A stretch of DNA of 37,819 nucleotides, from assembly GCA_964585065.1 (NCBI GenBank), contig CAZPCB010000004.1:1-37819 (forward strand), given 5' to 3'. The DNA comes from an uncultured Candidatus Saccharibacteria bacterium. GTDB lineage: Bacteria > Patescibacteriota > Minisyncoccia > SW-4-49-11. Below are positions 8,062 to 29,938 of this stretch, piece by piece. Each line of letters opens with the position of its first letter. Positions within the stretch are counted from its first letter, which is position 1. The notes below the pieces were generated by a model, which saw only the letters and a list, made by a program, of their open reading frames with translations, was not told the DNA's origin and did not search any database. A program made the position numbers and the translations under genes.

Positions 8062-8063
8062 CT

Positions 8064-9488: not shown

Positions 9489-10312
9489 AAATTAAAATAC
9501 TGATATGTATTATTAGTAGTATCATACTCATATATAGCTATCAGGAATATAGAAGATTAGTAAATCCAGAAGACCAAATATCATTTTTGAATATTGGGCA
9601 AGGGGATGCAAGCTTAATTCAATCTAAAAGAGGGGATAGAATTGTAATAGACTGTGGACCAAATTCAAAGGTTATTGATCAATTAGAAGCGAAATTAGGA
9701 TATTGGGCGCATCGTATTGATATGATTATTATTACTCATGGGGATAAGGATCATTTTGGTGGATGTAGGGATATTATTGATAGGTTTACAGTAGGCAAGG
9801 TGATGATAAATGGGGTATTCGATGAAAAGAATAAAAGTTATCAAGAATTACTGCAATATATCAAACAAAAAGATATCCCTATTTTACCCTCAATAGAAAA
9901 TACTACGATTACCTTGTCAGACAGTATAGAATTAACTTTATTAAATCCTCAGGAAAATCTTTGGGGGCAAAATATTATCAATGATAATCCTGAATCAATT
10001 GTTATGCTGCTGAGAAGCCAAAAACATTCAGTATTACTCACGGGAGACGCTGATGAGAATACAGAGAAAAAGATAATAGCTCAATACCCTCAATTGGACA
10101 TAGATATCTTGAAAGCCGGTCATCATGGGAGCAAAAGCTCCACATCAGAGCAATTCTTAGATGCTATTACTCCCCGACAAGTTATTATATCAGCAGGAGT
10201 TAACAATAGATATAATCATCCAAACCCAGATACAATAAAAAGGCTTGAGAATAGAAATGTTGAAATTAAAGAAGTGAAGAATTTTATGACAGGTATTGAC
10301 ATTTTATTATAA
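9485..10312 (+). CDS. ComEC-type metallo-beta-lactamase-fold nuclease (separate C-terminal half of ComEC)
   Basis: FLNIGQGDA, IDCG, THGDKDHFGG, LTGDA, LKAGHHGSKSS, ISAGVNNRYNHP. ATGA overlap with comEC. Confidence 0.9.
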   Translation: MKIKILICIISSIILIYSYQEYRRLVNPEDQISFLNIGQGDASLIQSKRGDRIVIDCGPNSKVIDQLEAKLGYWAHRIDMIIITHGDKDHFGGCRDIIDRFTVGKVMINGVFDEKNKSYQELLQYIKQKDIPILPSIENTTITLSDSIELTLLNPQENLWGQNIINDNPESIVMLLRSQKHSVLLTGDADENTEKKIIAQYPQLDIDILKAGHHGSKSSTSEQFLDAITPRQVIISAGVNNRYNHPNPDTIKRLENRNVEIKEVKNFMTGIDILL

Positions 10313-10356: not shown

Positions 10357-11121
10357 ATGGATGAACAACTCTTAGCCAAACTTCGCTCTCTTGGATTCTC
10401 AGACAAAGAATCTAAAGTTTATGTCGCTTCTCTTAAATTAGGATCTGCTCCTATTCAAAAAATTGCTAAATTAGCAACAGTAAATAGAGCTACTACCTAT
10501 GTATTAGTAGAAGGGTTCATGAAAAAAGGACTTATGAGTTCTTATACTCAAGGGAAAAAGAGATTATTTACTCCGGAATCTCCAGAAACCTTATCTGTAT
10601 TGATTCGACAAGATAAAGCTGAAGTTCAGGTAAAAGAGGATACTATAAATGAAATATTACCTACACTTGCAAGTATTTATGATACTACACAAGGTGGAGT
10701 ACGACCACAAGTACGATTTTATGAAGGAAAATTAGGTCTTAATAGTGTTCGTGAAGAAATGCTTAAGACTAAAGAAAAAGAAATTTTCAGTATTTTTGAT
10801 CTTGATGCAACTGAGGGAATTTTTACTTCTGAGGAAAGCGCTAATTTTTATAAAAAGCGATTAACGAAAAAAGTAAATGTACATGCAATTTATTCTTCAT
10901 CAAAGGGAGATATTTTGAAGGATTCAAAATTAGAAAAGGTATTATATCGCTATATCGATAAGTCTAAATATAATTCTCCTATTGATATATCGGTATTTGA
11001 TGACAATGTAGCTATTACTTCATTCAAAGAGCCTATAATGTCAGTTATTATACAAAATGAGCCAATTGCTGAAGCTATAAAGCAAATATTAACTTTGGTT
11101 GAAAAATCAGATACGAAATAA
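10357..11121 (+). CDS. TrmB-family helix-turn-helix transcriptional regulator
   Basis: LGFSDKESKVYVASLKLG...IAKLATVNRATTYVLVEGFMKKGL, PQVRFYEGKLG and C-terminal PLD-like ISVFDDNVAITS. Confidence 0.85.
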   Translation: MDEQLLAKLRSLGFSDKESKVYVASLKLGSAPIQKIAKLATVNRATTYVLVEGFMKKGLMSSYTQGKKRLFTPESPETLSVLIRQDKAEVQVKEDTINEILPTLASIYDTTQGGVRPQVRFYEGKLGLNSVREEMLKTKEKEIFSIFDLDATEGIFTSEESANFYKKRLTKKVNVHAIYSSSKGDILKDSKLEKVLYRYIDKSKYNSPIDISVFDDNVAITSFKEPIMSVIIQNEPIAEAIKQILTLVEKSDTK

Positions 11122-11124
11122 TAA

Positions 11125-11240
11125 ATTGAAGAGAGGAAGCCGCTTTGCGACTTCCTCTACGGAGAGTATTCAGTTGGAGTGTGATTGTCAGATGACACCC
11201 ACTTTATCCTCCGCTAGCAAAGCTAGCATAATGGAACACC
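11125..11240 (-). ncRNA. Candidate stand-alone structured small RNA, possibly carrying a 13-codon micro-ORF at 11229-11188 (MLALLAEDKVGVI)
   Basis: GC-richer island with its own promoter upstream, three hairpins, and a final 12-bp hairpin that pairs fully only on the minus strand (U-G wobble, versus C/A mismatch on plus). Family not recognised. Confidence 0.5.
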
Positions 11241-11243
11241 TCT

Positions 11244-11272
11244 ATATTATCATGAATATAGGTAATTGTCAA
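11244..11272 (-). promoter_or_regulatory. Sigma70 promoter driving the candidate small RNA
   Basis: Minus strand TTGACA (11272-11267) - 17 nt - TAATAT (11249-11244) with extended TG. Confidence 0.7.
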
Positions 11273-11280
11273 GATTATAC

Positions 11281-11319
11281 AACTAAAAACCCATTCAAAC
11301 ATTGAATGGGTTTTTAGTT
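11281..11319 (-). terminator. Intrinsic terminator after rplT
   Basis: Perfect 18-bp stem aactaaaaacccattcaa / ttgaatgggtttttagtt with A/T tails on both sides. Confidence 0.85.
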
Positions 11320-11337
11320 TAGGTCAAATATATAAGA

Positions 11338-11679
11338 TTATTTGGTATTCTCTACAATATGAGCAAATACTTCTGGTTTATGTTCAGCTAAATAAGCTAA
11401 GCTTTTACGATCGAGTTCAATATTAGCTTTATTTAAATTATTAATAAGTCGGCTATATTGTACGCCTAGATTTCGGCTGGCAGCATTAATTTTAGCTTGC
11501 CATAATACTCTCTTATCTCGCTTTTTATTACGTCGATCTCGATATGCATAAGTCCAAGCATGTAATAGGGCTTCTTTTGCAGCTCGAAAATTAGTTTTTC
11601 TTCGCCATTGAAAACCCTTGGCATGTTGCAAGAGATTCTTTCTTCTTTTACTAGCGGTAACTCCTCGTTTAATTCTCAT
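11338..11679 (-). CDS. rplT: 50S ribosomal protein L20
   Basis: RIKRGVTA...AKGF...YAYRDRRNKKRDKRVLWQAKINAA...IELDRKSLA. Confidence 0.97.
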   Translation of the reverse strand: MRIKRGVTASKRRKNLLQHAKGFQWRRKTNFRAAKEALLHAWTYAYRDRRNKKRDKRVLWQAKINAASRNLGVQYSRLINNLNKANIELDRKSLAYLAEHKPEVFAHIVENTK

Positions 11680-11697
11680 ACTATTATCTTAACAATC

Positions 11698-11889
11698 TTA
11701 TTGATTCAATACTCTTTTTAGCTTTTTGACTGGAGTATCAATAATTTGGGTTTTTCGCTTTGATCGCCCTGAATCACCAGATTTTTTAGCTAAGAAATGG
11801 TTCTGAGCTACTTTAAGAGCTACAACCTTATCATTCTTAGTAAGGGTAATGCGCTTGGATAATGATTTACGGGTCTTTAGCTTAGGCAT
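11698..11889 (-). CDS. rpmI: 50S ribosomal protein L35
   Basis: MPKLKTRKSLSKRI...HFLAKKS, located between infC and rplT. Confidence 0.92.
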   Translation of the reverse strand: MPKLKTRKSLSKRITLTKNDKVVALKVAQNHFLAKKSGDSGRSKRKTQIIDTPVKKLKRVLNQ

Positions 11890-11937
11890 ATGTTCAAATT
11901 ATCAATTATATACTCAATTCTGTCTATCTTATCATAA

Positions 11938-12489
11938 TTAAATCTTTTTTGCAAGTATAGCACTAAAACCTTGAGGTGAGCGCTTTAATTCTTGATCAAA
12001 GCGTATAGTATCAGGCAGATTGTCGAGTATATTTTTCATCTTAATACCCGCTTGTTCAGCAAAAGCTTTTTCTCTTCCTCTCAAATACATATCAAATTTT
12101 ACCTTATGCCCTTGCTCCAGGAATTTATAGGCTTGTTTTAATTTTACCTCTAAATCATGGGATTCTATCTTGAATCCAATACGAAGTACTTTGAGCTCTA
12201 CTTTCTTTTGCTTTGCCTTATGTAATCTCTGTTGTTTAGATTGAGTATAGAGGAATTTCCCATAATTCATGATTTTACATACAGGGGGGCGGGGATCAGA
12301 TGCTATTTCAACCAAATCTAAATCAGCTTCACGTGCTTGCCTGAGAGCTTCTTCTAGAGAAACCGTCCCAATCATTTTTCCTGTGACATCAATAAGACGT
12401 ACATCAGGACCAATAATATTTTCATTAATACGCTGATTTTTTTTTGATGAGCTCTTCGGCTGTTGTGACATTGAGTAATACTTATTAAT
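11938..12489 (-). CDS. infC: Translation initiation factor IF-3 (probable ATT start at 12489; alternative ATG at 12471)
   Basis: RINENI...VRLID...DLDLVEIA...PPVCKIMNYGKFLY, DLEVKLKQAYKFL. An in-frame ATT lies 6 codons upstream of the ATG, and AUU is the established infC start in many bacteria. Confidence 0.93.
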   Translation of the reverse strand: MNKYYSMSQQPKSSSKKNQRINENIIGPDVRLIDVTGKMIGTVSLEEALRQAREADLDLVEIASDPRPPVCKIMNYGKFLYTQSKQQRLHKAKQKKVELKVLRIGFKIESHDLEVKLKQAYKFLEQGHKVKFDMYLRGREKAFAEQAGIKMKNILDNLPDTIRFDQELKRSPQGFSAILAKKI

Positions 12490-12490
12490 A

Positions 12491-12882
12491 GGGTGGAGAT
12501 GATGGGAATTGAACCCATGTATAGCCCAGCATCCGTATACAATTACTTAGAGAAATAGGAAATTGCGGGTCTTTTTTATGATATATTCTTAATTAATTTC
12601 CAAAGATAGAATACATCAGTGCCACAAAAAAGTTTTGGCAAATGGTCTTTGTGGATGACTATTTCCCTATCAACATGTATATAACACCAATATTCTTGTA
12701 TGTTGACTAAAAGAATATGATGGCAGTCGCGAAATTACTTAGGCAACTGCATACCCAAATCCGTAAGAGGATCGGGCTGCAAAAGGTTTTGCATTTGGGT
12801 TTGTCCGTCTTTGGTCTCGTGACAGACATACGAGTTCTCATTGTATATAGATGTGAATGAACTAGCAAAGCGAAACATCCCC
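12491..12882 (-). ncRNA. ssrA: tmRNA (one-piece), tag reading frame 12792-12739 = AKPFAARSSYGFGYAVA*
   Basis: Acceptor GGGGAUG/CAUCUCC with G3-U70 and discriminator A, T-arm AUGGG-UUCAAUU-CCCAU, helix 2 (UAGUUCA/UGGGCUA; CAUCU/GGAUG; UAUACAAU/AUUGUAUA), PK1 (CUCGU/ACGAG; UGUCUGUC/GACGGACA), H5 GCAGUUGC/GCGACUGC flanking the tag stop. Directly downstream of smpB. Confidence 0.95.
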
Positions 12883-12889
12883 GATTGAG

Positions 12890-13333
12890 TTATTTGATTC
12901 GCAATATTCTTTGAATAGATCGTTGTTCTTCTCTATCTCGAATACTATGGCGCTTATCAATCTTTTTCTTGCCTTTTGCAAGGACAATTTCAATCTTAAT
13001 AAGTCCACGTATTAAGTATAGCTTAATTGGGATAATTGTCAAGCCTGAAGCTGATTTTTTGGCAATTAATGAATCGATTTCAGAACGCTTCAAAAGTATT
13101 TTTCGAGGGCGCTCGGTATCAAAATGGGTATCAGCATGATTTTGATAATGGGGGATATGACAATGAATCAAAAATAATTCATTATTTTCAATAGTGATAT
13201 AAGAACCCTTGAGGCTGGCATGACTTAATTTCACTGACTTCACCTCATTTCCAAATAACTGAAGACCAGCCTGATAGGTATCAAGAATAGTATAATCAAA
13301 AGTAGCACGAATATTTTGGGCAAGAGGCTTCAT
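12890..13333 (-). CDS. smpB: SsrA-binding protein SmpB
   Basis: NIRATFDY...AGLQLFGNEVKSVK...RPRKILL...GLTIIPIKLY...AKGKKKIDKR. Confidence 0.97.
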   Translation of the reverse strand: MKPLAQNIRATFDYTILDTYQAGLQLFGNEVKSVKLSHASLKGSYITIENNELFLIHCHIPHYQNHADTHFDTERPRKILLKRSEIDSLIAKKSASGLTIIPIKLYLIRGLIKIEIVLAKGKKKIDKRHSIRDREEQRSIQRILRIK

Positions 13334-15826: not shown

Positions 15827-15904
15827 GGCCACATCGTCTAGCCCGGTCTAGGACATCCCCCTCTCACGGGGAAAACAGGGGTTCGAATCCCCTTGCGGCT
15901 ACCA
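15827..15904 (+). tRNA. tRNA-Glu (anticodon CTC), CCA encoded
   Basis: Acceptor GGCCACA/TGCGGCT, anticodon arm TCCCC-CTCTCAC-GGGGA, T-arm AGGGG-TTCGAAT-CCCCT, ends ACCA. Confidence 0.93.
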
Positions 15905-15944: not shown

Positions 15945-17210
15945 TTATTCTGGTAACTTTTCTCTTAATTTACGATGATAGGTAACTGCAAAACGATGAG
16001 ATTCATCTCGAATTTGTTGTAATAATTGAAGAGCCTTAGAGGCCCGAGATAATAATTTTGGCCTATCATGTCCCGGAATATATATTTCTTCTAATCTTTT
16101 TGCAAGGGATATAATAGGAATAGACCGATATTCAATTTTTCCATTTCTCTGAGCTTCTAGGGCTTTTGATAATTGTCCTTTACCCCCATCAATTAAAATT
16201 AAATCTGGAATAGGCCAATCATTATGATTGAATCTACGAGTAAGAGCTTGATGAAGATTATAAAAATCATCACCACCCTCAGGGGGTTTTTGTATACGGA
16301 ATTTACGATATTCAGCCTTATTGGCTTTCCCATCTTCGAATACGACCATAGATACTACGGCTTTATCTCCATGAAAATGAGAGGAATCATAACCTTCAAT
16401 TCTTTTAGGTGACTTATCTAGATTAAGGACTTTCTGTAATTCATCAGTATATTTGATATTTCGGCTTTTATCAGTTGTGATAATTCCTTTATGTAATGAT
16501 ATTTTCTCTAAAGCTTCAATTTGTTGTCTTATCTCAAGAGCTTTTTCAAACTCTTGTAATGCGGAATAACTTTGCATTTGTATCGTTAAATCTCTTAATA
16601 GGGATTTGGTTTTACCCTTCATAATCTCAAGTATGGTGGTCAGATGTTTTTGATAATTAGCCTTATCGATATTTTGTATACAAGGAGCCTCACATTTACC
16701 AAGACGATAATAAATACAAGGATGTTTTGGCATTATTCTACAAGACCTATAAGGAAAGCTTTTCCGTAAAATACGTAATGTTTTACGGAGGGCATCTCCA
16801 TTAACAAAAGGACCAAGATAATTCAATTTTTCTGTATGAGAATCTAAATAGGTTTTATGAGTTACAAATATGCGGGGAAAATTCTCTTTAGTCCACACAA
16901 GATAGGCATAACTTTTATCATCTTTTAAAAGTATATTATATTTTGGATTATATTTTTTGATTAAATTAGATTCAAGAATTAAAGCTTCGATTTCGCTATC
17001 ACAGGGCTTGATTTCAATATGATGAATATCTTTTATCATAGCTCTTTTAGCTGCATTGAGAGAGGCGTTAGTCCGAAAATAACTTTGTATGCGGCTTTTG
17101 AGTTTAATGGCTTTCCCAATATAAATAATGGTATTATCAGAATTATAAAAAAGATATATTCCTGGAATTTGAGGGATATCTTGAATTATTTGAGTTAGGG
17201 GATGAGACAT
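15945..17210 (-). CDS. uvrC: Excinuclease ABC subunit C, short form without C-terminal HhH domains
   Basis: GIY-YIG (PGIYLF...IYIGKAIKLKSRIQSYF), EALILESNLIKKYNPKYNILLKDDKSY, UVR motif, RIEGYDSSH, DLILIDGGKGQL, QIRDESHRFA. ATG at 17210 preferred over GTG at 17231. Confidence 0.93.
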   Translation of the reverse strand: MSHPLTQIIQDIPQIPGIYLFYNSDNTIIYIGKAIKLKSRIQSYFRTNASLNAAKRAMIKDIHHIEIKPCDSEIEALILESNLIKKYNPKYNILLKDDKSYAYLVWTKENFPRIFVTHKTYLDSHTEKLNYLGPFVNGDALRKTLRILRKSFPYRSCRIMPKHPCIYYRLGKCEAPCIQNIDKANYQKHLTTILEIMKGKTKSLLRDLTIQMQSYSALQEFEKALEIRQQIEALEKISLHKGIITTDKSRNIKYTDELQKVLNLDKSPKRIEGYDSSHFHGDKAVVSMVVFEDGKANKAEYRKFRIQKPPEGGDDFYNLHQALTRRFNHNDWPIPDLILIDGGKGQLSKALEAQRNGKIEYRSIPIISLAKRLEEIYIPGHDRPKLLSRASKALQLLQQIRDESHRFAVTYHRKLREKLPE

Positions 17211-17249
17211 AAGTATAAAACAGTTATCCACTATTATCAGAAAGGATAA

Positions 17250-17280
17250 AATTATGATATACTACTAGTATATCATAATT
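17250..17280. promoter_or_regulatory. Perfect 14-3-14 palindrome forming face-to-face extended -10 boxes for uvrC and pspC
   Basis: AATTATGATATACT-act-AGTATATCATAATT; each arm contains TGATATACT. Confidence 0.75.
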
Positions 17281-17292
17281 TTAATATTAGTT

Positions 17293-17775
17293 ATGGCGAT
17301 TAAAACAAAAAAGCGGTTATATAAATCGACAAATTATAGGGTTTTTACAGGCGTAGCAGCGGGCCTCGCTGATTATTTGGATGCACCCCATTCTTCTATT
17401 AGAATACTATTTATTTTATTAACCCTTGCTAGCGGTATAGGTTTAGTATTCTACTTAGCTTTATCAGTACTTTTACCTACTGAACAGGAGGTGGTAGAAC
17501 AAGAAGATCTTGAATTTTATCAAACAGCTGTGCAGGGTTTACAAAGTAAGGAGGGAAATACAATAGCAAGAAAGTCTACATTTTTAGATGAGCTCATTAC
17601 TCCTCAAAATATTATGGCTATAAGTATTTTATTTTTCGGCGGATTTATCTTACAATTTGATATTGTTCCTTGGGCTCTTATTCCAGATACATGGAGATAT
17701 CCAGCTTTAATTATCACAGTAGGAATAGCTTTCATATTAAAAAGTCTTACCGTTAAAAAATCTAATATTGTATAA
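17293..17775 (+). CDS. pspC: PspC domain protein with C-terminal LiaI/LiaF-like TM segment
   Basis: RLYKSTNYRVFTGVAAGLADYLD...IRILFILL...GIGLVFYLALSVLLP is a PspC signature; C-terminal WRYPALIITVGIAFIL. Confidence 0.85.
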   Translation: MAIKTKKRLYKSTNYRVFTGVAAGLADYLDAPHSSIRILFILLTLASGIGLVFYLALSVLLPTEQEVVEQEDLEFYQTAVQGLQSKEGNTIARKSTFLDELITPQNIMAISILFFGGFILQFDIVPWALIPDTWRYPALIITVGIAFILKSLTVKKSNIV

Positions 17776-17777
17776 AT

Positions 17778-18728
17778 ATGTCAGGAATTATTATTGAACC
17801 AGAAGAAAAAAAACCAAATTCTTTTATAGGAATATTTTCTCATTTAGGTATACTATATATTCTCATTTTAGGTATTAGCTTAGGGATTGTATATTATCAA
17901 GGAGTATTTCAAGATAATTATCTTTCCATATATATACCTTTTAGCCATATTTGGCCACTTGCTTTGATTGCAGTGGGATTATCCATATTTCGAGTAAAAA
18001 GTTCAGCATCATTAAGTGTGGGTTTGTTTTTGATGGTATTGGCCACTGCTATTACTATGTTCTCAGTATTTATAAGAGCAGATGCTATTGATACTAATAC
18101 TCAAATAATATCAGGTTCAGTAAATAATGTGAAAAGTATTTATGCTGATATATCAACAACATCTACAAATATATCAGTTAAAGGGGGAGGTACTGGTATT
18201 GATGGGCAGTACACAGCTAATTATGGGGTATTAATAAATACTATTACAACTGATACAGATGCTGTTCAAACTATTAATCTTAGACAATTAGATATTCAAC
18301 CAGGTTTTGGTTCATATAGTAAAAAATTAGATATAATATTGCCCAATAATATCCCAACTATATTTGATATTACCGCTAATATTTCACCACTCTCATTAGA
18401 TTTAAAGGGGATAGTATTGAAATCTGCTAATATTACTCTTAGAGCTTCTCAAGCTAATATTGTCATAGATCAAATCGAGACAACCACAAATCTCAATATT
18501 ACTTCTACTGCAAGTCAAGTCACACTTAGTATTCCACGTAATATAAAGGTATTATTATCTACGTCTCACAGTTTTACCTCCAATGATTTTATTGGGCTTA
18601 CTCAAAAAGGAGTAGATTCAAAAGTATATGAAAGTCAAAATTATCAGGTCTCAAGTGACAATGAGGAGAAAACCATAACATTAAATCTTAATTCCACATC
18701 TTCTCAAATAAAGGTGATACAAAAATAA
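17778..18728 (+). CDS. Membrane protein with LiaF-like TM region and extracytoplasmic beta-solenoid (toast-rack-like) domain
   Basis: Three hydrophobic helices including HIWPLALIAVGLSIF, followed by repetitive beta-strand sequence. Operonic with pspC. Confidence 0.65.
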   Translation: MSGIIIEPEEKKPNSFIGIFSHLGILYILILGISLGIVYYQGVFQDNYLSIYIPFSHIWPLALIAVGLSIFRVKSSASLSVGLFLMVLATAITMFSVFIRADAIDTNTQIISGSVNNVKSIYADISTTSTNISVKGGGTGIDGQYTANYGVLINTITTDTDAVQTINLRQLDIQPGFGSYSKKLDIILPNNIPTIFDITANISPLSLDLKGIVLKSANITLRASQANIVIDQIETTTNLNITSTASQVTLSIPRNIKVLLSTSHSFTSNDFIGLTQKGVDSKVYESQNYQVSSDNEEKTITLNLNSTSSQIKVIQK

Positions 18729-18729
18729 T

Positions 18730-19128
18730 ATGATTATAGAAACTGCAGAATATAATGCAAAATTAATAGGCATATTCATTAAATGGTATTGGGTGGAAAT
18801 GCCATATAGAATTATTCGTAAAACAATACAATATATTGTAGTATTAGGCAAAATTTTCTCTTTTGCTTTTCTTATTAAAACATTTTTTGCCCCTTGGAAA
18901 AATCAATTATATGCCTATCCAAGCAAGGGGTTTGATATAAAGCACATATTTGAGGTATGGACTTCTAATATGATATCAAGAATAGTAGGAGCTTTTGTAA
19001 GAGGATTTACGATATTATTTGGTATCCTTACTGTTATTGTATTAGCTTTTCTAGGATCTGTAGGACTAGTAATATGGGTGTTATATCCTGTATTATTTAT
19101 CTTTTTTATTATACAAAGTCTTTCATAA
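18730..19128 (+). CDS. Uncharacterised integral membrane protein
   Basis: 132 aa with hydrophobic helices and the motifs WYW, FFAPWK, SRIVGAFVR. One-nt gaps to both neighbours. Confidence 0.75.
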   Translation: MIIETAEYNAKLIGIFIKWYWVEMPYRIIRKTIQYIVVLGKIFSFAFLIKTFFAPWKNQLYAYPSKGFDIKHIFEVWTSNMISRIVGAFVRGFTILFGILTVIVLAFLGSVGLVIWVLYPVLFIFFIIQSLS

Positions 19129-19129
19129 T

Positions 19130-21574
19130 ATGAAGTATTTTTATTCTATATATCATACCCGAACATTCTTTAGTAATATATTAGAGAAAATTATATTTAA
19201 TTGGCTGAGCTATATTATCTGGCTTGTTTTTATTGGTATTGTCACCTTAATTACCTATAATACAGCAAATTATCAATTAGCTATAATTCTTATCGGAACC
19301 AGTATTTATATATATGTAGTTGCCTATTTATTTATTATTCTGAAATTACGATCAGATAAAGATGCTTTTATATTCCCCAATAATTATGCTGAAATATTTG
19401 ATTATGATTTAGCACAATATTTAGTAAGATATTTCCCAAAGGAATTAAGTTATAGTCAGCTTATACATGCGGTTACGAGGAGTAAGAGGGGACAGGATAT
19501 ATTATCATATATGGGATTAGTACCAGATGCTTTTTATACAAAATTAAAAGATTTAGGCTTGGACACGGATCCGAATCTTCCTCCAATAGATGAATTACTC
19601 GCAAGAATACAATATGTAAAAGATTCATGGGAAGAATATCGAATAGGGGGGCATATTATTCTGTATGTCTTGTTTGAACAGGAAGGAATATTTACCACCA
19701 TATTAAATCAATTAGATTTATCTAAAGAAGACTTTTTACAAATTATTTCTTGGGAAGCTTTGCATTATCATAATACTATTCCTATATCAATATGGAGTCC
19801 CGAGGGAGTTGAGAAGAATTTTGGGGCGCTGGGAAGATCATGGACAATTGGCTATACCAATGATTTAGATAGGATTACTGAGGATATATCAGAGAAAATT
19901 ATATATCGTGATCCCCATCGGGTTATTATCCATCAAGATATTTTACGACGCATATTAACAAGCCTTTCTAAATCAACTCGACATAATATTCTCCTATTGG
20001 GAAATATTGGGGTTGGGAAAAAATCACTGATTGAGAATTTAGCCTTCACTATAAGGCAATATCAAATTCAGCATAATGATAATCTTACTCGTATTCTCAA
20101 ATTACAAACAACAGATTTACTATCTGGTACTGCAGATGCTCCACAATATTTATTGAAGGCTTTAAATTATGCTGAACATTCAGGAAATATTATTCTTGTT
20201 ATTGAGAATATTTCAGAATTATTTATATCTGCAGATGATGCGATACGTAACATTATTGTAAAATTTCTGAATTCACGTCATATTAATGTTATTGGTATAG
20301 ATAATCCGGAAGGGTATCATAACGGGGTGAAAAGCTTTCCCATTATTGATAGCTTATTTGAATCAATGCCTGTAGAAGATGCTTCTCCTAAAGATACAAT
20401 GAATGTATTGATGATGACATCATTTGATTTAACAAGACAATATAATAAATATATTACCTATCAATCCCTGAGAGCGGTGATGAGCTTCTCAGAGAGATAT
20501 ATTAGTAAGGGGGGATTTCCTGGTAAATCAGTAGAAATTTTATCAGATGCAGTAAATCAAGCCAATATAGAAGATAGCCCTTTTGTATTAGAGCATCATA
20601 TTCGTACTGTGGTATCTGAGAGAACCAATATGAATATTAATGAATTACAGAATACAGAGAAAGATGCATTATTGTCTCTAGAGGAAAAATTACAAGCTGA
20701 AATAAAGGGGCAGCCAGAAGGGTTAACTGCCTTATCAAATGCCCTAAAACGTGCTCAATTAGATGTAAAATCACGCAATAAGCCGGTGGGAACATTTCTT
20801 TTCCTAGGACCTACTGGAGTTGGAAAAACAGAAACTGCTAAGGCTCTAGCTAAACATTATTTTGGATCAAAGGATAGAATGATTCGTATGGATATGAATG
20901 AATTTGGAAGACCAGATTCAGTATATGGAATATTAGGTAGCCCAGCTGGAGAAGATACTAGTTTCCAAGAAGGATTCTTGACAAAACGGGTTCAAGATAA
21001 GCCATTTTCATTGATATTATTAGATGAAATTGAAAAAGCTCATCCTCAGGTTTTGAATATATTCTTGCAAATTTTAGATGAAGGATTCTTGACTGATAAT
21101 AGAGGTATACGCACAGATTTTAGAAATACTATTATTATTGCTACTTCTAATGCTGGAGCCTTATTCTTGCGTAATTTTGTAAGAGAACATCCCACCTTTG
21201 ATAAAGCAGCCTTTAAACAGGAGTTAATAGATACTATTATTCAAGGAAAAGAATTTGCCCCTGAATTTATTAATCGTTTTACGGAAGTTATTGTCTATTA
21301 TCCATTACAACTTGAAACAGTAGCTGAAATTGCTGCTAAAATGATAGAAAATCTCTCTGAGAGATTTGATCAAGAAAGAGGTGTGAAATTAGAAATTGAG
21401 CCAGATGCAATTGCCTATCTTGCTGAGCAAGGATATAGTCCAGATTTTGGAGCAAGAGAATTAGAGCGTACAGTATCATCCATATTAGAAACATATTTAG
21501 CCAATTATCTCCTTATTAATCAGGTCAAAAGGGGAGACCATATTATTATTACCAAAGATAATATTACAAAATAA
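19130..21574 (+). CDS. Membrane-anchored ClpA/ClpB-family two-ring AAA+ ATPase with degenerate NBD1
   Basis: Two N-terminal TM helices. NBD1 GNIGVGKKS / ILVIENISE; NBD2 FLFLGPTGVGKTETAKALA, LLDEIEKAHP, TSN, PEFINR, GARELER. Confidence 0.9.
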   Translation: MKYFYSIYHTRTFFSNILEKIIFNWLSYIIWLVFIGIVTLITYNTANYQLAIILIGTSIYIYVVAYLFIILKLRSDKDAFIFPNNYAEIFDYDLAQYLVRYFPKELSYSQLIHAVTRSKRGQDILSYMGLVPDAFYTKLKDLGLDTDPNLPPIDELLARIQYVKDSWEEYRIGGHIILYVLFEQEGIFTTILNQLDLSKEDFLQIISWEALHYHNTIPISIWSPEGVEKNFGALGRSWTIGYTNDLDRITEDISEKIIYRDPHRVIIHQDILRRILTSLSKSTRHNILLLGNIGVGKKSLIENLAFTIRQYQIQHNDNLTRILKLQTTDLLSGTADAPQYLLKALNYAEHSGNIILVIENISELFISADDAIRNIIVKFLNSRHINVIGIDNPEGYHNGVKSFPIIDSLFESMPVEDASPKDTMNVLMMTSFDLTRQYNKYITYQSLRAVMSFSERYISKGGFPGKSVEILSDAVNQANIEDSPFVLEHHIRTVVSERTNMNINELQNTEKDALLSLEEKLQAEIKGQPEGLTALSNALKRAQLDVKSRNKPVGTFLFLGPTGVGKTETAKALAKHYFGSKDRMIRMDMNEFGRPDSVYGILGSPAGEDTSFQEGFLTKRVQDKPFSLILLDEIEKAHPQVLNIFLQILDEGFLTDNRGIRTDFRNTIIIATSNAGALFLRNFVREHPTFDKAAFKQELIDTIIQGKEFAPEFINRFTEVIVYYPLQLETVAEIAAKMIENLSERFDQERGVKLEIEPDAIAYLAEQGYSPDFGARELERTVSSILETYLANYLLINQVKRGDHIIITKDNITK

Positions 21575-21601: not shown

Positions 21602-21630
21602 TTGAAAAAATCCTTATTTTATGCTATAAT
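21602..21630 (+). promoter_or_regulatory. hrcA promoter, predicted near-leaderless mRNA
   Basis: TTGAAA - 17 nt - TATAAT (TGCTATAAT). The ATG is only 8 nt after the -10 box. Confidence 0.7.
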
Positions 21631-21638
21631 AAGTTTAT

Positions 21639-22358
21639 ATGGATGAGAGAAAACAACAATTTTTAGAATATGTAATACTTGATCATATTGACACTGCGCA
21701 ACCAGTATCTTCTTTGAATATTCAAAAAAAATATCAATTACCATATTCTAGTGCTACTATCCGTAATGAATTAGCTGAATTAGAAGCTGAAGGGTATTTG
21801 ATGCAAGTACATACTTCTTCAGGTAGAATACCCACAGATAAAGGATATCGATATTATGTTAATCGGCTTTTGGGAAGACAAGAAATTTTGAGGCAATATG
21901 CATCAGTGACACATACATTTTTGAATGAGATGAATACTATACAAGAAATTCATTTAAAACTTAAAAATGTATTATTATCCTTTGCTCAAGAGTCTGGTAA
22001 TGTTGCTATGGGTAAATTATCAACAGATTTAATATTTGAAGAGGGGGTTGCTACTTTTTTGACTCAACCTGGATTTTCATCAGTAGAATTTATTCATAAT
22101 GCTTTGGAGGATTTAGAAGAAATTAAATCTCATATTGATGAAATAGGTCGTGATGTGAGTCAGGGTAGCTATAAATTATATATTGGGGAGGAAAGCCCAC
22201 ATACTTCTATGCATAATTACGCAGTTATTGTAGGTAAATTCTCAATTGACTCAGATGATGGTACAATAGTTGTAGTGGGACCTAAAGGTATGCAATATGC
22301 AAAAAATATAGCCCTCGTTGAATATATGCTTAATAATGATACATATGAAGAAGAATAA
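21639..22358 (+). CDS. hrcA: Heat-inducible transcription repressor HrcA (short form)
   Basis: PVSS...SSATIRNELAELEAEGYLMQVHTSSGRIPTDKGYRYYVN; IGEE...GTIVVVGPKGMQY. Confidence 0.93.
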   Translation: MDERKQQFLEYVILDHIDTAQPVSSLNIQKKYQLPYSSATIRNELAELEAEGYLMQVHTSSGRIPTDKGYRYYVNRLLGRQEILRQYASVTHTFLNEMNTIQEIHLKLKNVLLSFAQESGNVAMGKLSTDLIFEEGVATFLTQPGFSSVEFIHNALEDLEEIKSHIDEIGRDVSQGSYKLYIGEESPHTSMHNYAVIVGKFSIDSDDGTIVVVGPKGMQYAKNIALVEYMLNNDTYEEE

Positions 22359-22845
22359 ATTAGATCAAGATAATACTGGTATAGAAGAAGTAACTATTCA
22401 AGAATTACAAGAGACTATTTCTCGTCTAGAACAAGATTTAGGACATAATTTAGCTGGTTGGCAAAGAGCTCAGGCTGATTATCAGAATTTAAAAAGAGAA
22501 TCTGATAGATTGCGAGTAGAAAGTATACAGCTTGCAAATAAAAATCTTATTGAGACATTAATTCCCGTTTTTGATAATTTTGCATTAGCCCTAAAGCATC
22601 TCCCAACTGAATTAGCTGATAATACATGGGTTCAAGGTATTACCTATATACATAAGCAATTACAAGATATTCTATTAGCAGAAGGGGTGGAAATTATTAA
22701 TCCATTAGGACAGGAATTCAATCCGCATATTCATGAGGCAGTTGACAGTGAGGGAGAAGGGAATACAATTACTGAAGTATTGCAGGTAGGATATACATTG
22801 CATGGAGCATTAATTCGCTCAGCTCGAGTAAAAGTATCTTCATAA
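22345..22845 (+). CDS. grpE: Nucleotide exchange factor GrpE
   Basis: QRAQADYQNLKR, LIPVFDNF, GQEFNPHIHEAV, EVLQVGYTLHGALIRSARVKV. Start set to the ATG at 22345. Confidence 0.93.
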   Translation: MKKNKLDQDNTGIEEVTIQELQETISRLEQDLGHNLAGWQRAQADYQNLKRESDRLRVESIQLANKNLIETLIPVFDNFALALKHLPTELADNTWVQGITYIHKQLQDILLAEGVEIINPLGQEFNPHIHEAVDSEGEGNTITEVLQVGYTLHGALIRSARVKVSS

Positions 22846-23938: not shown

Positions 23939-24481
23939 ATGAGATATAAAAAGGGATATAGTGTGATTGAAGTATTATTGGCGGGTTCAATTTTAGCTTT
24001 AGCGGTAGCTGGAATAGTGAGTGCTATTCTTATTGCGCAAAGAAACAATCAAGCGAGCATTGCCCAAAGTCAAGCCTTAGAAATGGCTCAAGAAGGAATA
24101 GAGGCATTAAGATCAATTCGAAATAGAGATTATAGATTATTAGTAAATACTACTACTCCAGCAGCTTTATCAAAAACTGGTAGTGATTGGAGTATTATTA
24201 CAAGTCCAGCTTCAACTGATGATCGATTAACGAGTCCTTTAAGAACCAGGCGAATTACTATTGCAAATGATACAACAGCTCTTGACTCAAAGTTAATAAC
24301 AGTGACAGTAACCTATCAAATTAATCCAGAAGGAGATACTAAAACAATTAGTTTGTCTGAAACTCTTGCTAATATTTTAACCAATAAACCTTCAGGGACT
24401 ACTGCTGCAAGTCAAAATTATCAATTAAGAGATGATAATTTTGGGAATGCACAAAGTACATTTAAAGACCCAACACCATAA
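23939..24481 (+). CDS. Type IV minor pilin (PilV/GspI-like)
   Basis: Class III signal KKG|YSVIE, hydrophobic helix, ALEMAQEGIEALRSIRN. Confidence 0.85.
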   Translation: MRYKKGYSVIEVLLAGSILALAVAGIVSAILIAQRNNQASIAQSQALEMAQEGIEALRSIRNRDYRLLVNTTTPAALSKTGSDWSIITSPASTDDRLTSPLRTRRITIANDTTALDSKLITVTVTYQINPEGDTKTISLSETLANILTNKPSGTTAASQNYQLRDDNFGNAQSTFKDPTP

Positions 24482-24915
24482 TGCTTAAAAGAGGATTTAC
24501 CCTATTAGAAATTTTATTAGTAATAGCCTTAATAGGTGTATTACTGGCTACAGTTTTACGACTGGTAAATCCTCAAAAACGGTTTGGAGATGTGAATAAT
24601 CTTCAGCGTAAATCAGATGTTCTTAGTATTTATACTGCTATTAATCAATATCGTGAAGATAATAGAGGTAATCTCCCAGTAGGTATTACGACCACAGCTA
24701 TAGATATCTGTCAGCCTGGTTGTGTTGAAGATTCTACTCAAATTGATATTACAACAGAAATATCTAAATATATTCGTCTTGGTAAGCCTCCCATAGACCC
24801 TGTACAGACAGGGACTATATTAACGGGATATACGGTATATGCTAATGCTCAGGGTAAAATTGTGGTATCAGCCCCTCTTGCAGAAAACTTAGTTACTATT
24901 AATACTATAGAATAA
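24481..24915 (+). CDS. Type IV pilin, probable major pilin
   Basis: KRG|FTLLEILLVIALIGVL...NPQKRF...QRKSDV...AINQY; PIDP motif. Confidence 0.9.
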   Translation: MLKRGFTLLEILLVIALIGVLLATVLRLVNPQKRFGDVNNLQRKSDVLSIYTAINQYREDNRGNLPVGITTTAIDICQPGCVEDSTQIDITTEISKYIRLGKPPIDPVQTGTILTGYTVYANAQGKIVVSAPLAENLVTINTIE

Positions 24916-24919
24916 ACAT

Positions 24920-26527
24920 ATGGCGATAAAAACATCACAAAAACCACTTATCAAATCAGCAATGTTTCGTATTTTTACGGCATTGATATTCTTGTTCACC
25001 GCAATGATTTATGTGCTTGTTGCAGGATTATGGTATTTACAATATTCAGGCAGTATTGATATTATTTATACCGCCCAAGTCACTAATGTATTAATGGGAA
25101 TTATCTTAGCTTTATTTGTAGTAGGTTGGTTTTTCTCTTATGGTATTTATGCGGGAATTATTAAACCAAGTTATGAAACATTTAATATTATTGCACAAAT
25201 TGTAGATGGTATTGCAAAGGGTGGAGATATTGACCGTGATCAAGTAGCCTATTTGCAGGAATTTATGCAAAGTTCTTTGTCTCAATTAAAGAAAAGCTCT
25301 ATTACTCGTAAAATAGATGTGTCTAAGGGGACAGAAGAATATATTAAAAAATTAGAATCCCTTACTAAACAAAATACTGAATTAGCAAAATCTAAAGAAG
25401 AATTATCACAATTAGTATTAAAGTTAGAAAAACAACAAAAATTATTACAATTGGAACAGGCTAAAACAACCGCTATTATTAATGCTATCCCAAATGGATT
25501 ATTAGCCTCTAGTCGAGATGGTAATATTTTCTTAGTCAATAAAGAGACTGAAAAACTATTAGGACTAGATTCCGATAAATTATTGGGGAGATTTATTAGT
25601 CAGGTATTACCATCTCAAGAAAATAGTTCTACAGATTCTAATCCCAATACATCATTATCAAAAGCTATTGAAGGGGAGCGTATTACAAGAGTATTTAGTT
25701 ATGAATCTCCTATTGATAAACAAAAAGTTACTATAGAGGATACTTCCAATCCCATTAAGGTAGATAATGATATTGTGGGTATTGTTAATATTATTCGAGA
25801 TAAGACGCAAGAGCAAGAAACAGAAAGAGCACAAAAAGAATTTGTATCTATTGCATCACATCAATTGAGAACCCCAATAACCTCTATAAAGTGGAATGCT
25901 GAATTATTATTATCCGCAGATAATTTGAGTCAGGATTTAAAGGATGCGGCTGATGATATTTACAAAGAGAATAATAGAATGGAAAAATTGGTCAATGCCT
26001 TATTAAATCTCTCCCGAATTGATTTGGGGACAATTAAATTTGTGACTAAAGAAATTAATATTATTGAATATATAGACACTTTATTAAAGACATTAAATTC
26101 AGAAATTGTTAAAAAGAATCTGAACATTCAAAAAGATATCAGTATTAATACCCCTATTATTAATGATCCAGTATATACAGATATTATTATTGGAAATATA
26201 GTATATAATGCGGTTAAATATACTCCTCCAAATAGAAATATATCTATTAAGGCCTATACCATTACCGAGAAGAATAGTGTACATATAGAAATAGCTGATA
26301 ATGGACTTGGCATACCAGCATCACAACAAGCTCAAATTTTTGGTAGATTATTCCGAGCAGATAATGCCAAAAATAGTCAGACAGATGGAAATGGACTCGG
26401 GTTATATGTCGTAAAAAAATTAGTAGAAGCTATGAGTGGAAATGTCTGGTTTCAATCTGAAGAAAATAAAGGTACCACATTCTTTATAGAGCTTCCACTT
26501 GTCGTGGATAATCACAATGTGATATAA
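24920..26527 (+). CDS. PAS-domain sensor histidine kinase
   Basis: Two TM helices, coiled coil, PAS (IINAIPNGL...LVNKETEKLLG), H-box ASHQLRTP, N-box NAVKYT, DNGLGIP, GNGLGL, GTTF. Confidence 0.93.
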   Translation: MAIKTSQKPLIKSAMFRIFTALIFLFTAMIYVLVAGLWYLQYSGSIDIIYTAQVTNVLMGIILALFVVGWFFSYGIYAGIIKPSYETFNIIAQIVDGIAKGGDIDRDQVAYLQEFMQSSLSQLKKSSITRKIDVSKGTEEYIKKLESLTKQNTELAKSKEELSQLVLKLEKQQKLLQLEQAKTTAIINAIPNGLLASSRDGNIFLVNKETEKLLGLDSDKLLGRFISQVLPSQENSSTDSNPNTSLSKAIEGERITRVFSYESPIDKQKVTIEDTSNPIKVDNDIVGIVNIIRDKTQEQETERAQKEFVSIASHQLRTPITSIKWNAELLLSADNLSQDLKDAADDIYKENNRMEKLVNALLNLSRIDLGTIKFVTKEINIIEYIDTLLKTLNSEIVKKNLNIQKDISINTPIINDPVYTDIIIGNIVYNAVKYTPPNRNISIKAYTITEKNSVHIEIADNGLGIPASQQAQIFGRLFRADNAKNSQTDGNGLGLYVVKKLVEAMSGNVWFQSEENKGTTFFIELPLVVDNHNVI

Positions 26528-26547
26528 TAAATTATATAAAGAATAAA

Positions 26548-26913
26548 ATGGCATATAGTATACTTATTGTTGAGGATGAACAAGCAATAGCACGTGTGCT
26601 TGATTTAAAATTAAAGCAGGCGGGTATTGTTACTACTGTTACTAATACAGGCAATCAGGCTTTAGAATTGGTTAAAACGCAAAATTATGATTGTATTCTC
26701 TTAGACCTAATTTTACCAGAGGTGGATGGATTTACTATATTAGAAGCTATTAGAGCAAAAAATCAAGCCACAAAGGTTATTGTAATGACAAATTTAGGGC
26801 AACCAGAAGACAGAAAAAGAGTGCAGGATTTAGTTGTATCCGGTTATTATGTAAAATCAGAAATATCAATTTCAAGTTTGATAGAAAATATAAAACAAAT
26901 ACTAGAGACATAA
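26548..26913 (+). CDS. Single-domain response regulator (receiver only)
   Basis: ILIVEDE, LLDLILP (phospho-Asp), VMTN, YYVK. 121 aa with no output domain. Confidence 0.93.
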   Translation: MAYSILIVEDEQAIARVLDLKLKQAGIVTTVTNTGNQALELVKTQNYDCILLDLILPEVDGFTILEAIRAKNQATKVIVMTNLGQPEDRKRVQDLVVSGYYVKSEISISSLIENIKQILET

Positions 26914-26956
26914 TCTATAATCTCTGATATAATAAAGAAAATGAAATAAATATCAT

Positions 26957-28687
26957 ATGGAACCACAGGTAATACTTGAGTTATTAGTTAATACACAGTA
27001 TATTACGGATGAAGACCGTAAATTGGCATTATCTAGTACTAATAATGATTTTGCTGTAGCCGTAGATTATTTGGTACAAACCAATTTAATCACCTATGAT
27101 ATTATAGGACAGGCTTTAGCTGAATCTTGGGGTGTTCCATATCTTGATTTGAATACCTTTATTCCTCCAAAACAAGATGTGACTAAAATTCCAGAAGCGG
27201 TAGCTCGGGAACTCAGATTAGTCTATTTTAAAGATTTACCAGATAAAATTCAAATTGCTTCAGATAATGATTTGGTATTAAAAGGAAATGCTAAGCTTAT
27301 TATTCGTAAAGAAGAGAAGGCTGGTATAATGGGAGGTAAAAAAGAGGTAAAGGAGGAAAGAGATTTGAGAGGGGAATTAGTAAAATTATTCAAAAAACCG
27401 GTAGAATTTGGATATTCTCTTACACAAGATGTAGATAAATTACTTTTGAGTTATAAAGCTCCATTGGCATCAAGATTTGTATCTATAATGCAAAAATTTG
27501 ATACAGTTGCCCCGGAAATTGTAGAGGAAATTGTACAAGAAGCGGTAGAGGAGAAAGTATCAGATATTCACTTTGAAGCTCAATATGATAAAACAGTAAG
27601 AATTAGGTTCCGTATTGATGGTATGTTGCAAGAAGTGGGAAGAATTCCATTTTCATATTATGAAAATGTATTAAATTTAATTAAAGTAAAATCTCAGTTA
27701 AGAACTGATGAACATTTTATTCCACAAGATGGTGCTCTTCGATTTGAAAAAGATAATAAGGTATCAGATGTACGTGTATCTATAGTCCCGACAGTATATG
27801 GAGAGAAAATTGTTTTAAGAGTGCTCACTAATACCTTATCAAATATCACTCTTGAAACATTAGGATTGAATGAGAAAAATATTAAAATTTTAAGAAAGGC
27901 AGCTCAAAAACCATTTGGTATGGTATTGGTAACAGGCCCTACTGGATCAGGAAAATCAACTACTTTATATTCTATTCTAAAGACCATTAATGATGAGGGA
28001 CGCAATATTACCACAATTGAGGATCCAGTAGAATATAAAATTGAAGGGGTAAATCATATTCAAGTTAATAAAGAAACAGATTTGACTTTTGCTCGTGGAC
28101 TTAGATCTATTTTGCGACAAGATCCTGATATTGTATTGGTAGGGGAGATTCGAGATGATGAGACAGCCCAAATTTCTATTAATGCTGCACTAACAGGACA
28201 TTTACTTTTTTCTACGGTTCACGCCAATGATGGAGAAAGTACTTTACCGCGATTATTGAATATGGATATTGACCCATTTCTTTTGTCCTCTACATTACAA
28301 TTAATTATTGCTCAAAGATTAATTCGTAAAATCTGCTCAGCTTGTGTATATACCTATACAGTCAGTAGAGTTGAATTAGAAAAGACAATAGGAGAGCCCC
28401 TAGTGCGATTTTTCCCTGAGGATACATTAACATTATATCGGGGAAAAGGATGTTCAAATTGTGGCTTTACCGGATATAAAGGAAGAAGTGGAGTATATCA
28501 ATGTATTGAAATGACAGAAGAATTAAGAGAGGCTACCCTTCATCATCCAACTGCAGATATCGTAGCAAAAATAGCTCGTAAGCAGGGGAGTCAATCATTA
28601 TTTGAAGATGGTATAGAAAAAGTACGATTGGGAGTAACTACACTTGATGAAGTAATGCGTGTAGCTCAAATACCAGAAGAAGATTAA
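26957..28687 (+). CDS. pilB: Type IV pilus / T2SS assembly ATPase (PilB/GspE)
   Basis: SDIHFE, RFRIDGML, PQDG, GPTGSGKSTTLY, TIEDPVEY, LRQDPDIVLVGEIRD, TGHLLFSTVHAND, Zn-binding CSAC...CSNC. Confidence 0.95.
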   Translation: MEPQVILELLVNTQYITDEDRKLALSSTNNDFAVAVDYLVQTNLITYDIIGQALAESWGVPYLDLNTFIPPKQDVTKIPEAVARELRLVYFKDLPDKIQIASDNDLVLKGNAKLIIRKEEKAGIMGGKKEVKEERDLRGELVKLFKKPVEFGYSLTQDVDKLLLSYKAPLASRFVSIMQKFDTVAPEIVEEIVQEAVEEKVSDIHFEAQYDKTVRIRFRIDGMLQEVGRIPFSYYENVLNLIKVKSQLRTDEHFIPQDGALRFEKDNKVSDVRVSIVPTVYGEKIVLRVLTNTLSNITLETLGLNEKNIKILRKAAQKPFGMVLVTGPTGSGKSTTLYSILKTINDEGRNITTIEDPVEYKIEGVNHIQVNKETDLTFARGLRSILRQDPDIVLVGEIRDDETAQISINAALTGHLLFSTVHANDGESTLPRLLNMDIDPFLLSSTLQLIIAQRLIRKICSACVYTYTVSRVELEKTIGEPLVRFFPEDTLTLYRGKGCSNCGFTGYKGRSGVYQCIEMTEELREATLHHPTADIVAKIARKQGSQSLFEDGIEKVRLGVTTLDEVMRVAQIPEED

Positions 28688-28692
28688 TTATT

Positions 28693-29937: not shown

Positions 29938-29938
29938 T

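Follow-up and report, generated by a model that had tools for sequence, protein, structure and literature searches.

A PspC/Toastrack pair beside a membrane-anchored Clp-like ATPase and its small partner: a candidate junction of two membrane modules in the candidate phyla radiation

The 37,819-nucleotide (nt) stretch of DNA analysed here (the window; contig CAZPCB010000004.1, from an uncultured Candidatus Saccharibacteria bacterium) carries an array of four genes on its forward strand. They encode a PspC-type protein of 160 amino acids (aa; positions 17293–17775), a LiaF-like protein of 316 aa (p316; 17778–18728), a small protein of 132 aa (p132; 18730–19128) and a Clp-like ATPase of 814 aa (19130–21574). 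The genes meet at TAA-at-ATG, TAA-t-ATG and TAA-t-ATG, which leaves gaps of 2, 1 and 1 nt. In a Kyte-Doolittle hydropathy scan, which is a crude method, hydrophobic segments were present in all four products: three in PspC, three in p316, two to three in p132 and two at the N-terminus of the ATPase. Since each has conserved homologues across many metagenomes, these are real genes and not chance open reading frames (ORFs). A preliminary description of the window had noted four closely spaced membrane-protein genes with a palindrome in front and hrcA-grpE behind, and this arrangement was borne out by the ORFs, Pfam matches, hydropathy and a repeat scan. The G+C content of the window is about 29–38%, and the locus is 98% identical to one in a metagenome-assembled genome of 'Candidatus Paceibacteria' from Lake Mendota. 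The candidate phyla radiation (CPR, or Patescibacteria) holds a large share of bacterial diversity, has minimal genomes and is mostly uncultured. We hold with moderate confidence that the locus is the junction of two independently conserved two-gene membrane modules, namely a PspC/Toastrack pair (module A) and p132 with the ATPase (module B), in which the ATPase acts as a remodeller driven by its second AAA+ ring and receives an input from the first pair.

The product of the first gene matches the PspC family (PF04024; residues 7–64; E value 2.7e-18; 66 bits against a cut-off of 25) over the whole profile, and has two further hydrophobic segments beyond the PspC domain. It falls below both equivalog cut-offs for PspC of E. 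coli, with 41 bits against 104 for TIGR02978 and 36 against 136 for NF007973. Judged by these profiles, it is a PspC-domain protein and not an orthologue of E. coli PspC. The second product, p316, when searched alone matches LiaF-like_C below the Pfam cut-off (E value 0.003; 17.9 bits against 29). A profile of 12 p316 orthologues aligns at residues 105–318 with residues 7–220 of the 220 residues of PDB 4QRK (E value 1.2e-18), the Toastrack reference structure (PMC11237479). Among the same 12 orthologues, LiaF-like_C is matched by six, and LiaF-TM and LiaI-LiaF-like_TM1 by three each, both of these transmembrane (TM) models weakly. The identity of PspC and, on the strength of the 4QRK match and the Pfam matches of the orthologues, that of the LiaF/toast-rack protein had thus been called rightly from the window. 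The architecture of p316 comprises about three N-terminal TM segments, putatively of the LiaI-LiaF-TM type (which has four), followed by a C-terminal Toastrack beta-helix (residues ~105–316).

The partners typical of Lia systems, LiaS/LiaR and LiaH (PspA), were found neither in the array nor elsewhere in the window by Pfam scan. The same scan, which covered window ORFs of at least 90 aa and left out a few short ORFs inside longer opposite-strand genes, returned no gene of the PspA/IM30, Snf7, PspB or LiaRS type, in agreement with the preliminary description as to PspA and LiaRS. A metagenome scan seeded with PspC from the window's clade of Paceibacteria yielded at least 14 loci in which PspC is followed by a p316 homologue of about 300 aa, without p132 or the ATPase. 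In seven of the eight stand-alone pairs with 2.4–6 kb of downstream sequence, the next gene lies on the opposite strand. Neighbourhoods that combine PspC with Toastrack/LiaI-LiaF-TM proteins and lack PspA are an established pattern (PMC11237479), and module A is the usual PspA-free sensor/scaffold pair for envelope stress.

The third product, p132, is a small helical membrane protein of a CPR-wide family, for which no Pfam or NCBIfam family was found even when 62 members were scanned. A profile search of 1.84 billion cluster representatives returned 1188 relatives at E values up to 1e-3 and 329 at up to 1e-10, and all source names attached to them are those of CPR lineages (Parcubacteria, Paceibacterota, Minisyncoccia, Peregrinibacteria, Peribacteraceae and Campbellbacteria). 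Residues W19, L48, T51, P55-W56-K57, N80, R84, G87, R91, W116 and P120 are conserved. The AlphaFold2 model computed from a 62-sequence alignment (predicted local distance difference test, pLDDT, 96.8) consists of two long helices, residues 2–50 and 70–131, linked by the conserved PWK...KGFD loop; a Foldseek comparison with the PDB gave no fold match (best E value 4.7). No relation was detected by hhalign between p132 and the LiaI-LiaF-TM region (probability 0.1%), PspC (0.3%) or the TM hairpin of the ATPase (2%). By descent, therefore, p132 is no analogue of LiaI. Two p132 alignments (A3 and A4) were too divergent for a back-translation genome scan; the closer alignment (A1) recovered the window's clade only, in 13 species genomes. 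In this clade, where p132 is linked to PspC, residues 1–11 (18730–18765) read M-I-I-E-T-A-E-Y-N-x-K and are nearly invariant. The peptide is absent or unrelated in distant p132 homologues without this linkage, and it is a candidate contact motif specific to the clade, unless it reflects mere relatedness.

The fourth product contains AAA_2 (E value 1.4e-46) and ClpB_D2-small (E value 2.9e-19) in Pfam searches. Its parts follow one another as a short N-terminal peptide, two TM segments, a divergent domain that is putatively Clp_N-like, a degenerate first AAA+ module (D1), a second module with intact motifs (D2) and D2-small; all lie on the forward strand. The TM hairpin was placed by hydropathy at residues ~20–73 (19187–19348). 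Of 15 unfused homologues, 14 have two hydrophobic segments at the N-terminus, and in the other (L018) only one stretch exceeds the threshold. The Clp_N-like domain (residues ~76–245; 19355–19864) was delimited by weak, co-linear profile matches to 19 listed PDB entries with E values from 0.018 to 1.5, most of which are N-domains or N-terminal regions of ClpB, ClpA, ClpC or HSP101. Pfam Clp_N is matched by two of 12 family members, the orthologue at L024 has a precomputed Clp_N match, and a word-indexed search with the N-terminal 270 aa gave a single match.

Both AAA+ modules were delimited by alignment with ClpB of E. coli and a family motif table. D1 (19865–20590) aligns with ClpB residues 161–426, and D2, which together with D2-small spans 20591–21571, aligns with ClpB 533–843. 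The D1 Walker A reads GNIGVGKKS, the Walker B is ILVIEN with Asn for the catalytic Glu, the arginine fingers are lost, their RR having become SL, and an Asp aligns with the pore-loop residue Y251 of ClpB. The two Walker motifs and the arginine fingers of D1 are degenerate in differing ways in 22 of 22 family members, in which Walker A is GK[K/R/S/T] or worse and Walker B lacks the catalytic Glu; from its motifs, D1 is probably non-hydrolysing. The D2 module has GPTGVGKT, LLDEIEKAH, a TSN sensor-1, an NRF arginine finger and a GAR sensor-2, and its catalytic motifs are invariant across the 22 sequences, so that D2 would be the only ring able to hydrolyse ATP. The D2 pore loop (residues 601–621; 20930–20992) has GEDT for the GYVG around Y653 of ClpB; across the 22 members this loop is variable, often shortened or partly deleted, and has no conserved aromatic residue.

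No counterpart exists of the M-domain of about 100 residues (ClpB 426–533), as query residues 501 and 488 abut ClpB 426 and 533, and the alignment with ClpA forms one continuous stretch. The IGF/IGL loop for ClpP docking was likewise not found: no [IL]G[FL] tripeptide occurs in any of the 22 sequences, and the corresponding region (673–723) has a ClpB-like length. The PDB sequences that match the ATPase best are those of ClpB and ClpC, with E values of about 1e-88 over D2, and its scores lie far below the NCBIfam equivalog cut-offs for ClpB (354 against 1232) and ClpA (341 against 993). By these alignments and scores the ATPase is a member of the Clp/Hsp100 superfamily and is not ClpB, ClpA or ClpC. 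In public annotation it appears as 'ClpA' or 'hypothetical protein' and its partners as 'hypothetical protein'; the 'ClpA' label is misleading. Literature searches on the ATPase/p132 family, including ones aimed at CPR or membrane-anchored Clp/Hsp100 proteins, found nothing.

That p132 works with the ATPase, as the preliminary description had supposed, is the best-supported conclusion drawn here. The two genes adjoin in the window and in all 23 further loci of its clade. In nine of nine distant CPR contexts, Peregrinibacteria and Campbellbacteria among them, p132 lies within 5 nt of, or overlaps, a gene for a Clp protein of the same type with 803–849 aa. Furthermore, at least nine of the best 150 p132 representatives carry the p132 domain (E values 1e-28 to 8e-14) as the N-terminus of a Clp ATPase with two AAA+ modules, and in four of these fusions it directly replaces the ATPase's own TM hairpin. 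Because such Rosetta-stone fusions, which are known from several lineages, occur together with universal adjacency, the notion that p132 is a dedicated partner of the membrane-anchored ATPase is well supported by comparative evidence. An AlphaFold2 model of a natural fusion reached a pLDDT of 74 and a predicted template modelling score (pTM) of 0.47. In the distant contexts, no PspC gene lay within 8 kb of the pair (0 of 9), and no p316 homologue was found within 8 kb in the eight contexts searched. The four genes had been taken for a single system, and this view does not hold for their ancestry, as the distant p132/Clp pairs have no PspC neighbour and the PspC/LiaF-like pair is also free-standing. 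At four of the distant loci (L019, L022, L025 and L106) a thymidylate kinase gene divergently precedes p132/Clp and groES-groEL lies 1.5–5.5 kb downstream; in two of these four, a gene for an extracytoplasmic function (ECF) sigma factor lies in between.

Inside the window's clade the picture is different from that in the distant contexts, as the order PspC, LiaF-like protein, p132, Clp is found in all 23 further loci with no exception. These comprise 13 GTDB species-representative genomes, three contigs from an exact protein look-up and seven contigs from a metagenome scan; one of the 13 genomes is the same contig as one of four returned by the look-up, and two of the 23 loci end inside the second gene. 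The idea that the adjacency might be confined to this genome is thereby refuted. The lowest identities in the clade are 42% for p132, 47% for Clp, 33% for PspC and 22% for p316, and in three clade contigs with called genes the gaps do not exceed 12 nt or the genes overlap by 4 nt. The block is kept in three flank configurations, with uvrC before and hrcA-grpE behind, with uvrC before and other genes behind, or with other genes before and LemA plus an M48 protease behind. In a synteny control, no hrcA-grpE followed the block in L002 and L014, and in L006 and L007 these genes were displaced. In L017, where uvrC, ftsZ and hrcA are all absent within 5–6 kb, the four genes are intact and are followed on the same strand by LemA and an HtpX-like M48 membrane protease (10926–12404). 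An extra, divergent PspC paralogue lies between the second and third genes in L017 (7404–7880) and in L032 (2555–3031), a short contig related to L017. The persistence of the block where both flanks have been entirely replaced speaks for selection acting on all four genes as a group, although physical coupling is not proven thereby.

The 61-nt spacer between pspC and the divergent uvrC contains a perfect inverted repeat of 37 bp (18+1+18; 17247–17283, both strands), which is single-copy in the window against a chance expectation of 0 and is made up of two extended -10-like elements in mirror image, with TGATATACT on each strand. Full arms occur in the window and L005 only, 14-bp arms in L006 and L007, and the palindrome is absent in more distant members of the clade. 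A role as conserved operator was rejected, since only one half, the extended -10 element, is conserved across the clade; the palindrome is better read as overlapping divergent promoters. The conserved half is TG-n-TATACT (17255–17263, forward strand), identified by clade alignment and consensus scan. It belongs to an extended -10 box (TATGnTATAAT) before pspC with a core, TATGnTAT, that is invariant in 14 of 14 aligned clade loci, and the consensus scan pairs it with TTATCA at 18-nt spacing. It would serve as the promoter of the array. Positioned 23 nt upstream of it on the same strand is the motif AGTTATCCAC, with the DnaA-box-like TTATCCAC (17222–17231), which recurs at the same spacing in most of the 14 aligned promoters and at the equivalent position in L003, L012, L013, L014, L026, L027, L029, L030 and L031. 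The motif fits the DnaA-box consensus of E. coli at eight of nine positions. With up to one mismatch allowed, the window contains 3 matches against 2.2 expected, which is no enrichment. The site is not an origin because no GC-skew turn occurs there; a regulator may bind to it.

Downstream of the array follow hrcA (21639–22358) and grpE (22318–22845), both identified by Pfam. A strong promoter-like site of hrcA, TTGAAA-17-TATAAT with TG (21602–21630, forward strand; 11 of 12 matches), marks the downstream boundary of the array. No terminator was predicted in the 64-nt spacer between the array and hrcA, and no RNA gene was found inside or beside the array. A scan of the window for the CIRCE element, the operator of HrcA, found none. 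The gene after hrcA-grpE encodes a family-4 glycosyltransferase rather than dnaK, and HrcA here matches only the C-terminal domain model. The products of the four array genes are probably made together.

In the mechanism that we propose, p132 and the ATPase would form an obligate membrane-embedded AAA+ complex across the Patescibacteria, driven by ATP hydrolysis in the D2 ring alone and working at the inner face of the membrane or within it, on or through p132. Because neither ring has an aromatic pore loop and the ClpP-docking loop is absent, the remodeller would be non-proteolytic and probably non-threading. In the window's clade, where module A directly precedes module B behind one conserved extended -10 promoter, the PspC/Toastrack pair probably gives a stress-sensing input or a docking platform that switches or positions the ATPase. 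The recurring neighbours, i.e., hrcA-grpE in the window, LemA and the M48 protease in L017 and groES-groEL at the four distant loci, would fit a proteostasis or envelope-stress setting. Co-transcription of the four genes, physical contact between the modules, the non-threading mechanism and the role in stress are all inferred, and the coupling of PspC to the ATPase is plausible but unproven.

Several observations weigh against this proposal. Linkage of the modules is limited to one clade, and elsewhere each of them clearly works in the absence of the other. Ordinary synteny accounts for part of the conservation, since uvrC is almost as constant a neighbour and much of the clade keeps uvrC, ftsZ and hrcA. 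The four groEL-linked loci share their upstream genes and are probably one lineage instead of independent cases. The three predicted TM segments of p316, together with its charge distribution, could put the Toastrack domain outside the cytoplasm and away from the AAA+ rings. At a pTM of 0.47, the domain packing and interface in the fusion model are unreadable. Finally, the missing pore-loop tyrosines are evidence at the level of sequence, and non-canonical loops could still grip substrates.

The strongest alternative, which we nevertheless consider rather unlikely, is that two unrelated modules merely lie side by side. PspC/LiaF would then act by itself, as it does in other lineages, and p132/Clp would be a housekeeping membrane AAA+ complex; their tight packing would result from genome compaction and inherited order in a clade with small genomes, with no shared function. 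It is favoured by the solitary state of p132/Clp in nine of nine distant contexts, by the 14 or more PspC/LiaF-like pairs that lack Clp (where 2.4 kb or more of downstream sequence is available, an opposite-strand gene comes next in seven of eight), and by the near-constant presence in the clade of uvrC, which is presumably unrelated in function. However, it does not readily account for L017, in which every flank has changed and the block is not only intact but has gained a second PspC gene, nor for the lack of exceptions in 23 further loci despite p316 identities down to 22%, nor for gaps of 1–2 nt with a conserved promoter only before pspC.

A bolder form of our proposal, which we put forward as speculation and regard as unlikely in its full extent, is that a principle like that of the Torsins operates in bacteria. 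Here a non-threading, Clp-derived ring would use ATP hydrolysis in D2 to reshape p132, and by way of p132 the membrane or a membrane complex, and in the window's clade would serve as the effector of a PspA-independent PspC/Toastrack stress system. If true, this would amount to membrane maintenance free of ESCRT-III in the ultra-small cells of the CPR.

Less probable still is the view closest to the preliminary description, i.e., a Psp-like system with a genuine membrane-tethered Hsp100 unfoldase or disaggregase, which would extract or unfold damaged membrane proteins by threading, much like a protease-free FtsH or Msp1, p132 serving as its adaptor or stator. Of the Hsp100-type effector envisaged there, the Clp/Hsp100 scaffold and the membrane anchor stand; what is lost are the pore-loop tyrosines, the Walker B and arginine fingers of D1, the M-domain and the ClpP loop, and because of these losses a quality-control unfoldase is less likely than a non-threading remodeller. 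The intact D2, the Clp_N-like domain, which could receive substrates or adaptors, and the heat-shock and membrane-protease neighbours are in line with an unfoldase, as is the known pairing of phage-shock protein (PSP) components with an AAA+ protein whose N-terminal module is inactive (PMC11237479). Nonetheless, the ATPase has neither of the pore-loop tyrosines on which threading by Clp/Hsp100 proteins depends (PMC5425593), the D2 loop varies and is in part deleted throughout the family, and D1 is dead. In addition, the protein lacks the M-domain that would couple it to DnaK and the loop that would couple it to ClpP, and its linkage to PspC is not ancestral to the ATPase family. An anti-phage defence module akin to Dodola or PDC-M37, whose ATPases are ClpB-like, is highly improbable and was rejected: the D2 region matches the PADLOC models DolB (1.2e-33) and PDC-M37B (1.9e-31), but these matches cover only the generic AAA_2 module, the three partner proteins match no PADLOC model (there is no DolA partner), and p132/Clp keeps a stable place between housekeeping genes in CPR lineages, outside any mobile element or defence island.

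Whichever of these applies, the p132/ATPase pair appears to define an undescribed, membrane-anchored branch of the Clp/Hsp100 proteins in which D1 is dead, the pore-loop tyrosines are missing and a small membrane protein is the obligate partner, and its retention across several CPR classes makes it likely to be important. If it is a non-threading remodeller, as we propose, it would be a tractable system in bacteria for learning how the Torsins and other Clp-derived ATPases work without pore loops. The junction with PspC/Toastrack would supply a candidate output for PspA-free PspC/Toastrack pairs, few of whose effectors are known.

Other features of the window were recorded as follows. On the uvrC side of the array, UvrC (15945–17231, reverse strand) is short (at most 428 aa), with GIY-YIG, UVR and RNase H-like domains and without the C-terminal helix-hairpin-helix region; the GTG of its ORF overlaps the conserved upstream motif, and its real start is therefore probably the ATG near 17210. 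A tRNA-Glu gene (15827–15904) lies between ftsZ and uvrC, and the tmRNA gene adjoins smpB (12491–12882 and 12890–13333, both on the reverse strand). ComEC is apparently split into an ORF with the Competence domain (8025–9488) and one with the metallo-beta-lactamase domain (9485–10312) that overlap by 4 nt; the true start of the first is probably later, because its annotated GTG overlaps tRNA-Val (7988–8062). Beyond grpE, a type IV pilus cluster (23939–30421) contains two pilin-like genes, a PilB-like T2SSE, a PilC-like T2SSF and another pilin. Within it, 3.3 kb downstream of the array, lie a PAS-HisKA histidine kinase gene (24920–26527) and a receiver-only response regulator gene (26548–26913), which together (24920–26913) are the window's sole histidine kinase/receiver pair. 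Four ORFs match no Pfam family at E values up to 1e-4: 54–1580 (508 aa), 30483–32420 (reverse strand; 645 aa), 32407–33501 (reverse strand; 364 aa) and 33582–34349 (255 aa).

Among known systems, the class I Clp/Hsp100 proteins ClpB, ClpA and ClpC share with the ATPase two tandem AAA+ modules, an AAA_2 D2 with D2-small and all catalytic motifs of D2; an N-domain of the Clp_N type may be common to them as well, on weak evidence. They differ from it in that the ATPase bears two N-terminal TM segments, has lost both the D1 motifs and the pore-loop tyrosines and is paired with a small membrane protein dedicated to it; relative to ClpB it is without the M-domain, and relative to ClpA and ClpC without the IGL/IGF loop. 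Anchoring of a hexameric AAA+ motor by N-terminal TM segments is shared with FtsH and Msp1, and the HtpX-like and heat-shock neighbours would fit membrane quality control. However, both belong to the classical AAA proteins and have working aromatic pore loops, to which FtsH adds a protease domain; the ATPase of the array shows none of these features.

The Torsins are Clp/Hsp100-related, membrane-associated ATPases without aromatic pore loops that have the TM partners LAP1 and LULL1 (PMC5425593). The absence of such loops and the membrane partner are common to Torsin and the ATPase described here, and in its logic the p132/ATPase pair is, by analogy, most likely nearer to Torsin with its cofactors in the membrane than to either ClpB or ClpA. 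Torsins contain only one AAA+ module, reside in the lumen of the eukaryotic endoplasmic reticulum and receive their arginine finger from the cofactor. Unlike them, the ATPase keeps its own invariant D2 NRF arginine finger and GAR sensor-2 and has a dead D1 ring. The Torsin cofactor has a degenerate AAA+ fold, whereas p132 is a small helical protein. The resemblance is an analogy of logic, with no homology beyond the Clp superfamily.

With respect to module A, the PspA-free neighbourhoods of Ravi et al. (2024; PMC11237479) share a PspC protein followed by a LiaI-LiaF-TM and Toastrack protein with no pspA nearby. The outputs described for them are histidine kinases, HAAS-PadR or other transcription factors and transporters, whereas the array studied here encodes no transcriptional output. 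A Clp-type ATPase neighbour is not mentioned in the main text of that paper ('Clp', 0 occurrences) or in one of its supplementary files ('ClpB', 0 occurrences). According to Text S2.2 of the same work, PspA/Snf7 operons may include an ATPase of the 'inactive classical AAA + classical AAA' type, so that there too a PSP component is coupled in the genome to a tandem AAA+ protein in which the N-terminal module is inactive. That protein is assigned to the classical (Vps4/Cdc48-like) AAA clade and has PspA/Snf7 as partners. The ATPase presented here, in contrast, belongs to the Clp/Hsp100 (AAA_2) clade, is membrane-anchored, has a small membrane partner and stands next to PspC/Toastrack in a window where no PspA was found. 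On the description in Text S2.2, this PspA-linked protein is the closest contextual precedent for the array.

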